The notes under the pieces: model-generated
Told to the model about the DNA's origin: nothing
Databases searched by the model: none
The model's input: only the letters and a program-made list of their open reading frames with translations
Made by a program: the position numbers and the translations under genes
Assembly: GCA_951406725.2 (NCBI GenBank)
Contig: OX597820.1
Span: 40,796,001 to 40,860,000, forward strand
Source: Octopus vulgaris
Lineage: Eukaryota
Direction of reading: 5' to 3'
DNA length: 64,000 bases
Part shown: piece after piece, positions 3,270-50,945 of the stretch
How the letters are laid out: each line of letters starts with the position of its first letter
Position numbering within the stretch: the first letter of the stretch is position 1

Positions 3270-4660
3270 AAACAAATCAGTAAATGACGGTGTGATAACT
3301 TGCAGCGATCCCAGGTGTTCCAAGGTACACTTACTCTTTTCCTGGTGCTATTTCGAAAAGATGTGGACCGGCTCTATTTCGTAAAGATATGAACCTAGAG
3401 TTAAACACAATATTCCTAAACTCGGATGGTACATTAATTTTCCCAGATATGATCAACAGTGATAGAGGTAATGTTTTCAGATGGTAACCGTTATATCCAG
3501 AGAGGAGCTGAAGACTGAATTTCTTATTATATTTAGAAGCTTTCCTAGGAATACCTTGCTTGTTAGTGTTAGTATGCAAATGAAATCTCATCTTAGACGT
3601 ATGCGGAGATTGAGTGGGATCAGCCAATACTAAGGCTGATCCATTTTCAGATATTCCTAGGCGATGATATATCTCGCCACTGCTGATATTTTTAGCTCAG
3701 TTGCTAATCGAGTTGGGCGTATGGCTTGTGGAGTGTTGCCGGGTGCTCAGTGTTCTATAGCAGTGACATTTGTAAAGTTAGTACAAATCTAATGCTAGGA
3801 TTCTTTAGAATTTTAGAGGATGATAGCTGATAGTTTACTGTTGATAAGAACTGCTCAGGTAGTTTCCTCTAGAAAACTTTCAAGATGAGCTTTACGAGCA
3901 ATTTCCAGAAGTCATTAACCTAGAGTTGCTACAGGAGTAATTTACCTTTCGGGATAACCTCTGCAAGTTTGGCTTTTTTAAAGCCGCTAGCAACTGAACC
4001 AGTTCATGATGCATAGAGAATGATGGAACCAACTGGCAGTATGTACTCGTTCGGTATCTATGCATTACTGAATTTGTGGATTTATCTCTAATATCTGTTA
4101 TCAAGTGCGAGACAAATTCGACTAACAACTGAATCTATCCTGACGATCAACTCACCATCTTGCTTTGGCAACGTAGTCTTCCCAATCACGATGACGAAGG
4201 AAGTTGAGTGGTGGATACTATTGAAACGGCAAAGCTCTTATCCATGAGTCTAGCTCCCATAAATTTTTTCAAGTTTCACTTGAAATAAAAGTAAACTTTG
4301 ACAGGGAGCTGGTGTCTGCCAGAAAATTTAATAAAAGTAAATGAGAGTGTTGCAGCAGGCGTGACTAAATGGATCTACACTAGCATTAGCGGCAAAAAGT
4401 GGGAGAAGGTATTTGATTTTGAGGTGTTATTCCAGTGTTGAGAGTGGGTTACCCCGATCCCCATATGTACCCATTTTGGACAACCTTTTGTGTTCTTTTG
4501 CTGTTCTCTATGATTATTGCTGTTACTTGCTATCTGTTTATGCTTTTATCGTTTCCTCAATATCACATTAGTGCTTCATTTTTTTTCCCGTTTTTGTATT
4601 TATTTCGCCTTTTTCTTTAGTTCCCGATGTCTAAGGCCTTTGTGGCCAATAAAGAAATTA
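3270..4660 (+). mobile_element. Decayed 3' part of an L1/Tx1-clade LINE (ORF2 C-terminus plus 3' UTR)
   Basis: Broken frames give LLSSARQIRLTTESI, MTKEVEWWILLKR (from 4191) and INFFKFHLK* (~4259), resembling Tx1/L1 ORF2 C-termini; T-rich UTR ending CCTTTGTGGCCAATAAAGAAAT. 5' boundary approximate. Confidence 0.6.
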
Positions 4661-16989: not shown

Positions 16990-17826
16990 AGTCAAAATTA
17001 TTCATATGGATGGCATGAAAAGCAGTGATGCAAAATTAAGAAAATTTAGAAAAGCAGTGCAGATGCATTTGGGTTATATTTCACTTGTAAAAAAAAAACA
17101 TCTTCCCTACAGTTTGCCATGAAGATAAATTTTCGCTTTTAGCAAAAGGTATTAAAAATCCCAAAGTTTGTTAACACCTTTTGCTAATGGAAAATAAATG
17201 CATAAATTAAGGGCTCAAAACTAAAGAGAACAACATCCTAGCGTTTTCAGTAAACTTATCACGAAGTTAGATTATTGTACTACAACAAAAACCTGGAAGA
17301 AAAGCCATTGGCATACAAAAAGAAGTAAATGGTTAGCCATGCTTATAGGGACAGGAATTATGACTTTCCTTCGAAGATTTTGCTTTTGAAATCCAAGGAA
17401 GGAGAAAACTACACAATACACACTGAAGTAAAGAATTTGCAGCATTTAAACCACTAAGAGGTGACCGAAACTCAATTATCTCACATTTTGTCGAGTATAT
17501 TACACTTGTGAATACAACTGCCGAAAACGTCATTTAGGTACTTGCTTTTAATGTGGTACGATGATGTAGCTAGAATAGTATACAATGCCTTCCTTAGTGT
17601 ATATAGATTGCTCTGAGATAAATATGGAAAATATTTCTGTTATATGTAGTAAGTATTAAAGTATCTAACATTACTGGGACATTCCCATTAGATTTTCCGT
17701 GAAATGCAAATTTAAGTAGTCTGATATAGTTGCTTGAGACAGAAAATGAAAATTTCGCACTAAAGTATCGCCAACTACTCTCTAGGTATGAATATTTCTT
17801 TTAACATGAGAGAGATAGAGAACATT

Positions 17827-18436
17827 ATTTACTACTCTAGGCACAAGGCCCCAAATTTTGGGGGAGGATGCCAGTCGATTAGATCGACTCAGTACGCAAC
17901 TGGTACTTAATTTATCGACCCCTAAAAGTGGAAAAGCAAAGTCGACTTCGGCGGAACTTAAACTCAGAACGTAAAGACAAACGAAATACCTATTTATTTA
18001 CTACACACAAGGGGTAAACACAGAGGGGACAAACAAGGACAGACAAAGGGATTAAGTCGATTATATCGACCCCAGTGCGTAACTGGTACTTAATTTATCG
18101 ACCCAAAAGGATGGAAAGGCAAAGTCGACCTTGGCGGGATTTGAACTCAGAATGAAACGGCAGACGGAATACGACTACGCATTTCGCCCGGCGTGCTAAC
18201 GGTTCTTATTTCTTTATTACCCACAAAGGGCTAAACATAGGGAGGACAAACAAGGACAGACAAACGGATTAAGTCGATTATATCAACCCCAGTGTGTAAC
18301 TGGTACTCAATTTATCGACCCCGAAAGGATGAAAGGCAAAGTCGACCTCGGCGGAATTTGAACTCAGAAAATAAAGACAAACGAAATACCGTAAGAATTT
18401 CTCCCAGCGTGCTAACGTTTCTGCCAGCTCGCCGCC
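17827..18436 (-). mobile_element. SINE family B trimer flanked by a 16-bp target-site duplication
   Basis: Three tandem bodies, one complete head (GGCGGCGAGCTGGCAG, ending 18436). Direct repeats AGAGATAGAGAACATT (17811-17826) and AGAGATAGAGAATATT (18438-18453), 15/16 identical. Confidence 0.9.
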
Positions 18437-20028
18437 TAGAGATAGAGAATATTGTCTAACCTTAACCCTAACGTAGCCAAATTATGGATTTACAGTTATA
18501 AATTGACATGCATTTGGATGTATAAGAAATGTCTAAGTGATAATCTCGAAAGAGCGTGGTTGTTAGGCAAAGTAAGTGACAAATTATAACGCACTTTTTC
18601 ACTGCATTCTGTAAGAACAATAAAAGTAAGTACGCCTTTTTCTAAAGGTCAACATGAAGCTTATGTTTTTTAGGGTCGCTGTAATTCAAATTCCTGCTAC
18701 ATCACTTTATTTCTCTGCAAGAAACTATTTGAAATTTTTTGGAAAGCTCAAATGATGAAAAAGAAAACTCACTAACTATATATAATTCTACAAACGCAAA
18801 TGAATTTTGCCAATGCGTAGATTAACTTACAAGCACTTCCAACCGAGTAATTATGTTTGTATTTATACACGGCTTATGAATTTAATGTAATTTACTGTGT
18901 TTAAATGAGTGTACAGTGAAAAGTTTATGAATGCTTAAATTAGGCATCGCACATGTGAACATTCACACCCTCTCTCTCTCTCTCTCTCTCTCTCACGCAC
19001 ACACATACACACAACTATACACAATTATTCGCAACACACTCTTTATAATTCGTTACTAGCGACATATTTTCCCAAGTAGATGCAAAATTCCTTATCATAG
19101 CAATCCGAAAGTTGGTGGCAGACTTACAAATCATTTCGTAAGTATAAGTATAAGTTTCTTTGATAAGCAACTTGCACAATCTTTACTGAAAACCACTCCA
19201 GCTTTCGATAGTTTCTAACAGGAAGTCATGACTAATTTTTCATAACATTTACATTGTCATCAAAGCTCACCTGTCGATTCACGCGAACAATCCCTTAGAC
19301 TTTTTCGATGTTGTCATAAGCATAGAATACGGTTAACAATCTAATCCTCTCTTGATAGAAAGAATTGCAAGATTGTTTTTGAAAGTCTATTTGATGAAGA
19401 TCTGTATCAGTTAAAAATATTTTTGCTATACTGTTCTGAAGTTTTCTCTGGATTTCGAGCACTGATGCAATTTCAATCGATAGGAAATGAATCGGTGAAT
19501 ACTGTTCTTTTGTTGAGCGACCATGAAGGCTCATTGACTATGGTTAACATATTAACAAAGGCTATTTAAATGACATTCCAAGTTCAAACATAAACCATAA
19601 GGACTTGCGGGAGACCTAGCCTAACGATGCGTAAGAAACTAAAATTCACTCCAATGAGGAAAAAACTGCGAGTGCTTTGCAGATAATTCATGGCTCACCT
19701 TCCGTGCACGCGCCAGTATATATATGTATGTGTGTTTATGTGTGTGTATGCATGTGTGTGTGAGTTATACATATGTGTACGTGAGTGTGAATTATACGTG
19801 TGTCTATGTGTATATATGCATACTTACATGCACAGATGCACAAATATTCGAATGATACGTTAACAAGTCTTCACTCGAGTAATCATTGGTAAGTATATAA
19901 ATACATAACTCATATATAAATAACTAAAAAGGAATATACGCATATTACACTCTAATATCCTTATATCCCAGCATTTCTGTTTATCTCTTTCTCATTAAGC
20001 ATGCATATCTGTGTGTGTGTGTGCTTGT

Positions 20029-39786: not shown

Positions 39787-40355
39787 ACTCTTTACTCTTT
39801 ACTCTTTACTCTTTACTCTTTTACTTGTTTCAGTCATCTTGACAGCGGCCATGCTGGAGCACCGCCTTTAGTCGAGCAAATCGACCCCAGGACTTACTCT
39901 TTGTAAGCCCAGTACTTATTCTAGCGGTCTCTTTTGCCGAACCTACTCTTTACTTTTTACTCTTTTACTTGTTTCAGTCATTTTGACTGCGGCCATGCTG
40001 GAGCACCGCCTTTAGTCGAGCAAATCGACCCCAGGACTTATTTTTTGTAAGCCCAGTACTTATTCTAGCGGTCTCTTTTGCCGAACCGCTAAGTGACGGG
40101 GACGTAAACACACCGGCATCGGTTGTCAAGGAATGCTAGGGGGACAAACACAGACACACACACACACATACATATATATATATACATATATACGACGGGC
40201 TTCTTTCAGTTTCCGTCTACCAAATTCACTCACAAGGCATTGGTCGGCCCGGGGCTATAGCAGAAGACACTTGCCCAAGATGCCACGCAGTGGGACTGAA
40301 CCCGGAACCATGTGGTTGGTTAGCAAGCTACTTACCACACAGCCACTCCTGCGCC
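39787..40355 (-). mobile_element. Full-length SINE family A with its 3' ~155 bp duplicated
   Basis: Head on minus GGCGCAGGAGTGGCTGTGTGGTAAG and B box GGTTCAGTCCC; tail module at 39787-39943 and again from 39944; possible TSD TATTTT (39781-39786 and 40356-40361). Confidence 0.9.
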
Positions 40356-48370: not shown

Positions 48371-49900
48371 CGAGGAGGAGGAGGAGAAGGAGGATAATGA
48401 TGATGACGATGATGACGATGATGATGATGATGATGATGAAAACGATGACCTCTGTATTAGCAATCGGTTGTCGTAGTCGTGGTAGTGGTGGTGCTAATGG
48501 TAATGCAGGAAATTCATTGCTGGTGTTTGGTTTATGTATGTGTGGGTGCTTGGTGGGGGTGTAGCTGTGCTCCAGTATGTCACAGCCTTTAGGCTGGGAC
48601 GCATAAACGGATAAAGATACTGCAGAGATAACAGCACAGCATATTGGTTAGTTTAGTTTGCAGTGATCACGATCCTGGTTTTTATGGGTGCCACGGGCAG
48701 CAATGATACTGGTTGTGGTAGGGAAGCAGATTTCGGTGGTGACGGCGGTGTTGTTTGCACTAATAGTGATATTGGTGATGGTAGTAATAATGGGACTAAT
48801 TGGGTGGTGTGGGGGGTACATAGAAAAATCTGTGGTAGTAATAGTTGTGTCATGGACAGGGATGGTAATAATAATAGTGTCACAGAGGTGAAACAAAAGC
48901 AGAGAAATCAATAGTGTACCTATAAACTTGGCTACTGTTGTTTTTGTTGTTGATTAGACGGGTGTGGGGGATAATAAATGTCATGCAATTTGAATGATGT
49001 ATGGATAGATTAAGTATACCAGAGTATGTGATTTATGATAGTAGACCCTTGAATCCGGGGATCAAATCCTGCCGTTTGAAATGTTCGCATTGTATTTTTA
49101 ATTTAATATAGTGATGTTGCACCATTCGGTTCTACTCCTCGTGGCTTTGTCTTTGTTAAAAAGGAAACTTTTATTATAACCCTCATAACGATATTTATGA
49201 TCATCATGATCAATATCATTACCATTGTGTCTCGTATTGAGACCATGACCGGGTTTCACTTGCCGGTAAAAATAATAAATAAGTAAATACATAAAATGAC
49301 AATTTGTCTAACTAATTGGCGCCCATGGGAACTGGAAAGGAAAAAAAAAAAAAAACCGAAAAATATACTGGCGCCCTTAGGAAATGTAAAAACGTGGAAA
49401 AGAAACCGTTTACCCTCTCTTACCTAGTTTAGGTTTTATGTCTATATTAAGAATCAGCCGTCTTTTGTAGTATTTGTTGGTGTTGCTTTCACTATGGATG
49501 ACTTTTGTTCTTTATTGGTTTCGTGCACCCCTTTTAATCTTTTGAAATACATTTTCTTTTCTATCTTTTTTCTCACGATATACTGTAAGCCTTTGTATTC
49601 TTGTATTCGAAACCGAAACGTGACTTTTCACCTGCGATGGCTAAGAACTCGTTTTTTTTCCTTATCGTAAATGAGCTTTATTATTATTTACAGTGTGTGG
49701 ATCTTTGTGACCGTTGTTATTGTTATCAAACTCCTCCTTTCCCCCGCCTAACTCACTCTTTCTTTTACATTTATTTGTTGGCTCCCCACTATTCTCTCAT
49801 GTGTACTAAATACAGATTTCAAATTATGGCAAAAAGCCAACAAGTTCATGAGAGGGAATATATCGATTACATTAACCCGAATGCTCAACTGGTACTTATT

Positions 49901-50487
49901 TTCTTTTCTATCCTAGGTACAAGGCCCGAAATTTCGGGGGAGGAGGCCAGTCGATTAGATCGGCCCCGGTGCACAACTGGCACTTAATTTATCGACCCCG
50001 AAAGGATGAAAGGCAAAGTCGACCTCGGCGGAATTTGAACTCAGAACATAAAGACAAGCGAAATACCTATTTCTTTACTACCCATAAGGGGCTAAACACA
50101 GAGGACAGACAAACAAGGACAGACAAACGGATTAAGTCGATTATATCGACCCCAGTGCGTAACTGGTACTTATTTAATCGACCCCGAAAGGATGAAAGGC
50201 AAAGTCGACCACGGCGGAATTTGAACTCAGAACGTAGCGGCAGACGAAATACCTATTTCTTTACTACCCACAAGGGGCTAAACACAGAGAGGACAAACAA
50301 GGACAGACAAACGGATTAAGTCGATTATATCGACCCCAGTGTGTAACTGGTATTTAATTTATCGACCCCGAAAGGATGAAAGGCAAAGTCGAACTCGGCG
50401 GAATTTGAACTCAGAACGTAGCGGCAGACGAAATACTTGCCAAGCATTTTGCCCGGCGTATTAACGCGTCTGCCAGCTCACTACCTT
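49901..50487 (-). mobile_element. SINE family B trimer (two long-tail units and one short-tail unit)
   Basis: Three bodies; both internal junctions read CGAAATACC|TATTTCTTTACTACCCA; single head TCTGCCAGCTCACTACC at ~50470-50486. Confidence 0.9.
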
Positions 50488-50807
50488 AACGTAGACAGTA
50501 TATGGCAAGCAGGTGACTGAAAGCGTTGCTGGTTTAGAGAGCAAGCAACTCGCGGCCAAAACAAATGATTTCTTTGAACAGGTTAACCTCATAAGCTCCG
50601 AAAAAGACTCAACTTAGAATCTCATCTACACCAACAACGTTCTGGTTGCACGAAGCTACTAGGATCACCTCGTAAAGATGATATGTTTAGTCTAGTTTGG
50701 TTTGGCGAAGAATACAGAAAGCCATAGGATACTGTTAAAGTCGTCCTTTTTCACTTCCTTGCATATATGCACTACTAATGTTCTTAAGAGGAAAAAAAAG
50801 ACTGCTA

Positions 50808-50945
50808 ATTCATTTTATCGATCTCGAAAGGATAAAAGAAAAGTCAATGTTAACGGGATTAGAACTCAGAATGTAAAGAACCGGAGTAAAATAATAAGCG
50901 GAATTTTCCCCGACGTGTTAACGATCCTGCCAATGGGATTCCGGC
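50808..50945 (-). mobile_element. Older SINE family B 5' half (matching 3' half possibly at 49815-49900)
   Basis: TTTATCGATCTCGAAAGGATAAAAG..AAAGTCAA...GAACTCAGAATGTAAAG...TAACGATCCTGCCA. Confidence 0.6.

Follow-up and report, generated by a model that had tools for sequence, protein, structure and literature searches.

How does a tandem array of three short interspersed element (SINE) units come to carry a single complete head? Two such arrays occur in the window analyzed here, a 64,000-nucleotide stretch of Octopus vulgaris DNA (contig OX597820.1, positions 40,796,001 to 40,860,000). Both arrays, A and B (Table 1), lie on the minus strand and have the composition first described for them: one complete head, two units with a long tail, and a last unit with a different, short tail. 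The original prediction was that long-tail SINEs integrate sequence-specifically into the heads of resident copies of their own family.

Table 1. Coordinates of the two SINE arrays and their parts (window positions)
Feature	Position	Strand	Remarks
Array A, whole	49901-50487	-	Sole complete head, two long-tail units, short-tail last unit
Array A, complete tRNA-like head (only one)	50437..50487	-	A-box-like motif
Array A, unit 1: body and long (LINE-derived) tail	50254..50436	-	J junction at 50254/50253
Array A, unit 2: headless body and long tail	50068..50253	-	J junction at 50068/50067
Array A, unit 3: headless, short tail, likely resident copy	49901..50067	-	
Array B, whole	17827-18437	-	One complete head, three units
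Array B, complete head	18390..18437	-	
Array B, unit 1: body and long tail	18207..18389	-	J2 junction at 18207/18206
Array B, unit 2: partial head (from J2), body and long tail	17991..18206	-	J junction at 17991/17990
Array B, unit 3: headless, short tail, likely resident	17827..17990	-	
Array B, TSD, 3' copy	17811..17826	.	15/16 match
Array B, TSD, 5' copy	18438..18453	.	16 bp, 1 mismatch to 3' copy

Three of the four internal junctions in these arrays join the tail end GAAATA to GGTATTTCG, a position in the head that we call site J. Both junctions of array A read this way, and in the second junction of array B AAATAAATA is followed by GGTATTTCG. The first junction of array B, GAAATA followed by AGAACCGTTAGC, lies 33 nt upstream of J in the head (site J2). 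Three like junctions and a fourth upstream had been noted before, and this stands; the letters given near 17,990 (AAAATAG) do not, as the sequence there is AAAATAAATAG. J lies between an A-box-like and a B-box-like motif and J2 inside the former, both motifs being named after what we take to be the box consensus.

Units 1 and 2 of array A are 94.9% identical, unit 2 has its nearest relatives at other loci, and unit 3 is 87% identical to each of the other two. Unit 1 of array B begins with short-tail alleles, and one rare base is common to its units 1 and 3. The target site duplication (TSD) around array B does flank the whole array, as had been pointed out, but it does not establish the host-copy origin once read from it, because a TSD alone cannot separate a host copy from copying of the whole array. 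Array A has no clear TSD (8 matches in the best flank comparison). On the minus strand, the two halves of an older family member flank it (50808-50931 on the 5' side, about 49826-49900 on the 3' side), possibly one old copy split twice, and about 310 bp of other DNA separates the 5' half from the array. The tails of the window copies fold no better than shuffled sequences (z 0.72 and -0.15), and the heads gave z -2.78 in one case and -0.14 in the other. Contigs from four other runs (organism labels A-D) reach both ends of both arrays and break inside them, the joints being swamped by other copies; none of them showed an orthologous locus with just the resident copy, which counts against the explanation favored below. 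A different short repeat occurs at 39800-40087 as a tandem duplicate with a 144-bp period and a 96% match.

The family is a SINE family by its properties: copies are short, non-coding, flanked by TSDs of variable length, and abundant, with 95,589 exact matches to a 25-mer of the long-tail end in the 2.8-Gb genome. TSDs with at least 10 of 12 matching bases were found for 33 of 61 long-tail and 22 of 34 short-tail monomers, where about 1-2 would be expected. The head has motifs resembling the A- and B-box consensus; ARAGORN and Rfam report no tRNA, and Rfam gave no snRNA match of the kind that a SINEU head proper would have. As in tRNA-derived SINEs, the 3' tail is shared with a LINE, here in the case of the long tail. 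A retrozyme or rolling-circle element was considered and rejected, since Rfam returned no ribozyme for 49800-50600 even at an E-value threshold of 5. One long-tail monomer (locus L294, minus strand, 3612-3844) is nearly unmutated and has a perfect 14-bp TSD starting GGTAT, which indicates that the family was active recently. The octopus SINEs OK, OR1 and OR2 reportedly go back to Ohshima and Okada in 1994, and the present family may, we presume, be one of these. They are tRNA-derived, and they are named in the accessible text of PMC4758252 and PMC4824008.

The long tail aligns to the 3' end of a LINE at locus L192 in 43 of 55 columns (score 63.5 against a shuffled maximum of 36) and, judged by this alignment, is derived from a LINE 3' end; the short tail does no better than shuffles against the same end (28.5 against a maximum of 36). 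The full reading frame of the L192 family encodes an APE-type endonuclease, a reverse transcriptase and a zf-RVT domain, and its PDB matches are to L1 ORF2p only. This partner is a putative Tx1 element. The family has no poly(A), and for 28 of 34 tails, from 30 loci, the next bases are GTTATCTA of a (TCTA)n repeat. A protein search for a LINE that targets J returned instead a (TCTA)n-targeting family, and the two elements that do end at J, described below, share 46-60% protein identity with the L192 family. Several LINEs of this type thus end in a similar tail followed by NNTAT, J being one such site. An RTE partner or a Ceph domain was rejected, as nothing was found in its support. A young LINE family without poly(A), inserted in (TCTA)n, was observed at L261-L290 and L296 (best matches at 98-99% protein identity, many 1159-aa frames, copies often clustered a few kb apart). 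LINE-like tails that share the motif lead into (ATT)n, (CATA)n or (TCTA)n repeats at further places: in the window at about 4636 (plus strand) and about 31670 (minus strand, index 32330 when counted on that strand), and at L230, L063, L291 and L295.

Genome-wide, the heptamer GGTATTT of site J directly follows 34,247 of the 95,589 exact tails (35.8%) and the J2 sequence follows 1,977, whereas reversed-pattern controls gave 0. Since GGTATTT has a background frequency of 1.3e-4 in 184 kb of unselected sequence, its association with the long tail is far beyond chance. A parsed sample comprised 745 units in 231 sequences (1.5 Mb), namely loci, the majority on contig C1, that contained the exact long tail, short tail or junction or showed the two-head pattern, together with 12 arbitrary 10-kb stretches and the window. 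After its 333 long-tail ends outside the two-head set, J comes next in 173 cases, J2 in 17 and other DNA in 143. Targeting of fixed sites in SINE heads was borne out, but it is partial. None of 134 sampled short tails runs into J, and one joined short-tail/J pattern had 0 exact matches.

The exits into other DNA are themselves non-random. Their positions 3-5 are mostly TAT, and their first bases vary with an allele of the tail: 44 of 80 exits with the T allele have GG, and 9 of 16 with the third allele have AA. Among 48 listed insertions, the upstream TSD copy begins with GG in 10 of 27 with the T allele, 2 of 15 with the C allele and 0 of 6 with the third, against a background of 2.7%, and such GG starts in T-allele insertions indicate that the first exit bases belong to the target. 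The same one-base allele predicts the site, T going with J, C with J2 and the third with neither: by hand count of the first 100 matches listed for each site, 92 J junctions carry T and 90 J2 junctions carry C, and of 1,356 tails with the third allele, 14 run into J. One LINE tail ending at J carries C, so the allele is a marker and not a cause, and different LINE partners for each subfamily would equally be expected to produce the link. Mismatches past the tail resolve towards J in 13 of 25 cases (p=0.04), a weak indication that bases past the tail are templated by RNA.

Evidence that resident DNA is the target came from loci with two heads. A full head right behind the J sequence gave 193 genome matches, whereas two control 11-mers from the body gave 52 and 24; as the controls are exact in more units than J (382 and 428 versus 284 of 647), the enrichment at J is about 5- and 12-fold. 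In 33 of 48 distinct two-head loci that were read, the long tail runs into J downstream, and in 9 of the 48, one of them a local repeat, locus-private bases are repeated on both sides. The outer head is the more diverged (12.6% versus 5.7%; older in 18 of 24 loci, younger in 4), although picking the inner heads by an exact 14-mer biases their divergence downward. In addition, there are two LINE-type elements whose ends coincide with J of a short-tail SINE. One of them measures 2.5 kb, has an ORF1-like frame and is bracketed by a 16-bp J duplication (13 match), and the J-ending LINE-type tail has 2 exact copies in all, both at J (a small number). These two-head products and LINE-type elements at the same base, together with the older last units described below, establish that long-tail copies insert at a fixed site in resident copies of the same family, with targeting of J at the DNA level, and so uphold the core of the original prediction. 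Two-head products amount to about 0.6% of the J count, and most J junctions must have been finished in another way.

The same observations make it quite unlikely that the arrays arose at the RNA level, by a reverse transcriptase that begins on a short-tail RNA, stalls at a hairpin at J and resumes on a long-tail RNA from its 3' end, with no resident DNA involved. Such a switch would fit the predicted hairpin containing J in the head consensus, a switch point no more than 12 nt from J (33 of 61 last units retain short-tail alleles), heads entirely of long-tail type, and the start near J of 15 of 28 headless copies, which is partly a threshold effect. However, the two-head products and the LINE-type element with its TSD prove DNA-level targeting, last units diverged by up to 27% are unlikely templates, and the 5'-most base of the arrays matches the short-tail pattern.

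Insertion into resident copies leaves a mosaic of ages, as seen in array samples picked by exact motifs, the larger part of them on contig C1. In 61 arrays ending in a short-tail unit, the last unit is older than the preceding units in 49 and younger in 11 (7.2% versus 4.7% divergence); the pattern holds for loci picked by an exact short tail (24 versus 8 of 32), and the distal part of the last unit is as diverged as solo copies. The heads are young: 6.6% diverged from consensus in 50 such arrays, where solo copies show 14.1% (short tail) and 8.9% (long tail). They are young along their whole length, with no 5'-to-3' gradient (0.103/0.048/0.080, against 0.156/0.125/0.145 for solo copies with the short tail), and 13 of 50 arrays carry the long-tail head allele, versus 0 of 36 solo short-tail copies. 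Just behind J, the first unit carries long-tail alleles in 35 of 50 arrays and short-tail alleles in 7. The outermost features are of short-tail character. The extreme 5' base is short-tail-like in 47 of 50 arrays, 35 of 36 solo short-tail and 47 of 70 solo long-tail copies, and TSDs start with AATAT in 16 of 29 short-tail-ended arrays, which we liken to solo short-tail copies (6 of 22). Among arrays ending in other units, 8 of 28 have a last unit at least 12% diverged (mean 18.6%) and heads at 7.9%, versus heads at 18.7% in solo copies of comparable age (n=48). An old frame and an old last unit with a new head mean that the newcomer most likely replaced the resident's head rather than inheriting it.

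The mechanism first proposed differed on this point: a 5'-truncated newcomer was to fuse behind the resident head and so inherit a Pol III promoter with its A box. With most array heads young and carrying long-tail alleles, inheritance is refuted as the rule at J, and we regard it as very unlikely to account for the family. It stands for a minority of arrays and perhaps for J2. Array B is among the exceptions to head replacement, its first unit having short-tail alleles as in 7 of 50 arrays, and first and last bodies share rare variants in 4 of 32 dimers. In J2 arrays the first 16 head bases look old (26/163 versus 40/390, a weak difference) and may have been kept from the resident. Further observations count against the explanation that we favor: at J2, the variants common to the 5' head and the retained head exceed chance (13 versus 4), head and last-unit divergence are correlated (rho 0.37, n=34), and few long-tail-ended arrays carry the long-tail head allele (2 of 33). 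The TSD mismatch rate was of no use as a clock, since counts of 12, 11 and 10 matches fail to separate the groups. Of the young short-tail copies sampled, 33 of 73 would have been taken over in this way. A head variant of long-tail copies, 44G/49C, alters the first G of the J site and could make such copies resistant to targeting; this is the variant at the head of 13 of 50 short-tail-ended and 2 of 33 long-tail-ended arrays.

Adjacent units were compared in 135 arrays, leaving out units with many gaps and using a threshold of 97% identity. This level is reached by 0 of 91 pairs in dimers, 7 of 58 in trimers and 23 of 57 in arrays of four or more units, against 0.15% between arrays. Of 182 dimer units, 4 have their nearest relative within the same array, and of the 6 units in the window none does. 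Local tandem duplication, or ectopic gene conversion between DNA copies without reverse transcription, is thus highly improbable as the origin of the arrays; conversion would moreover scatter the switch points along the body. For dimers local duplication is refuted, in line with the original prediction, and in long arrays it is a second step, as the nearly identical neighbors there and in some trimers attest. A SINE-derived satellite was rejected as a description, homogenization of units being absent in dimers and most trimers and partial in arrays of four or more. Satellite-like small tandem arrays of SINE parts, with periods of about 64, 84, 121 and 101 bp, were seen elsewhere (G000:C10:17996024-17996505, C22:20052856-20053641, C11:81438137-81438782 and L161-L166). 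At L047, L028, L128 and L065, short-tail SINEs are clustered tail-to-head, with a short A/T-rich spacer before the next full head.

A single master copied whole is excluded for dimers, which share no variants across arrays, and a fixed dimeric SINE of the Alu type with few masters was rejected on the same ground and because arrays range from 1 to 8 units in a mixed fashion. There remains the case in which self-insertion at J did happen, though rarely, and the bulk of the arrays were retrocopied from multimer transcripts of many sources, with priming at the last tail. TSDs are about as frequent in long-tail-ended arrays (20 of 32) as in monomers (33 of 61), the first and last units of long-tail-ended arrays are of equal age, transcripts running past the tail are required in any case, and L092 looks like three units inserted together. 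Last units, however, form no clusters (5 of 1,830 pairs share two or more rare variants, compared with 26 of 1,891 pairs of solo copies), in-register variant sharing in 40 dimers is at the permuted level (2 versus 2.3), and hundreds of independent sources would be needed, each itself a product of self-insertion. We consider copying of whole arrays unlikely as the general explanation, although it probably adds to the long-tail-ended arrays.

The reading we favor, with a probability of roughly 60%, is that a SINE with a LINE tail inserts at J in older kin and overwrites the resident head, and that repeated rounds build the arrays. Targeting of J and J2 is likely carried out by borrowed LINE enzymes. 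A tRNA-type SINE would have acquired the 3' tail of an L1/Tx1-like LINE, whose endonuclease would nick at NNTAT-type sites, and a few RNA bases beyond the tail could pair with the nick and favor J or J2. Reverse transcription would then proceed to the incoming RNA's own head, and the end of the cDNA would invade the resident head immediately upstream, to which it is complementary, and replace it in a homologous 5' join. The predicted product has one young head, new units and an old last unit, all inside the old TSD, and its transcripts would again terminate in target sequence. Repeated insertion would give dimers and trimers of unlike units, with local duplication contributing at four or more; a non-homologous 5' join would keep the resident head and yield a two-head product with a TSD. 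A more far-reaching version, which we offer tentatively and hold to be less probable than not, is a self-homing SINE: its RNA would be homologous to its own family at both ends and would turn decayed copies into sources with fresh promoters, with read-through transcripts ending in the target and inherited 3' bases guiding the choice of site.

In the accessible parts of the papers cited here, the nearest known system is the crocodilian SINEU, mobilized by Tx1-Mar (Kojima 2015, PMC4494074). There, too, SINEs go to the target that Tx1 LINEs use within another repeat; the preference is partial (13-90%), sequential insertion produces tandem copies, and differing sites are ascribed to differing Tx1 partners. 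The octopus family likewise has more than 20% of copies at one target (35.8% of exact tails; 190 of 333 sampled ends, J and J2 together) and, on the small number noted above, a LINE sharing it. SINEU differs in that its target is a Mariner transposon and its tandem copies sandwich a TSD, whereas the octopus SINE targets the head of its own family, has an RNA that matches the target at both ends, and forms a seamless one-head array. By analogy, the octopus system would work like SINEU/Tx1-Mar with its own family as target, and self-homing with head replacement would be the new part.

The R2 and R1 elements offer a precedent for both proposed pairing steps: in the sections available, 3' read-through pairing lifts insertion (from 12% to 96% for R2Ol), and 5' target homology is thought to permit strand invasion at the 5' join (PMC6895275, PMC6530143). 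These elements are autonomous and target rDNA, R2 with a restriction-like endonuclease, and their homology arms are host rRNA and not the element. Tandem B2, Dip and Ves multimers make up a large share of their families in head-to-tail form (about half for Dip, with up to eight units; PMC8466645), and, as in squamate SINE-derived satellites, long arrays homogenize (PMC10702118). Their full-length units are joined at the tails, with the origin left open, and the squamate satellites are duplicated SINE parts; the accessible text of neither paper reports a fixed internal site or head replacement. Within the literature outside subscription papers, Repbase and supplements, we found no account of SINE self-homing with head replacement or of the octopus system.

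With tens of thousands of copies, this family is a natural experiment on LINE integration, bearing on RNA-target pairing versus the endonuclease in the choice of site and on 5' end joining. SINE insertions into SINEs, with a homologous 5' end, can be compared with LINE insertions at the same base, which have no such end and keep their TSD. Many copies of the family are age mosaics with a young head and an old end, which biases dating and subfamily calls. According to the available portion of PMC13282606, the repeat class to which the family belongs makes up 11.6% of an octopus genome, and the bias would touch that class.
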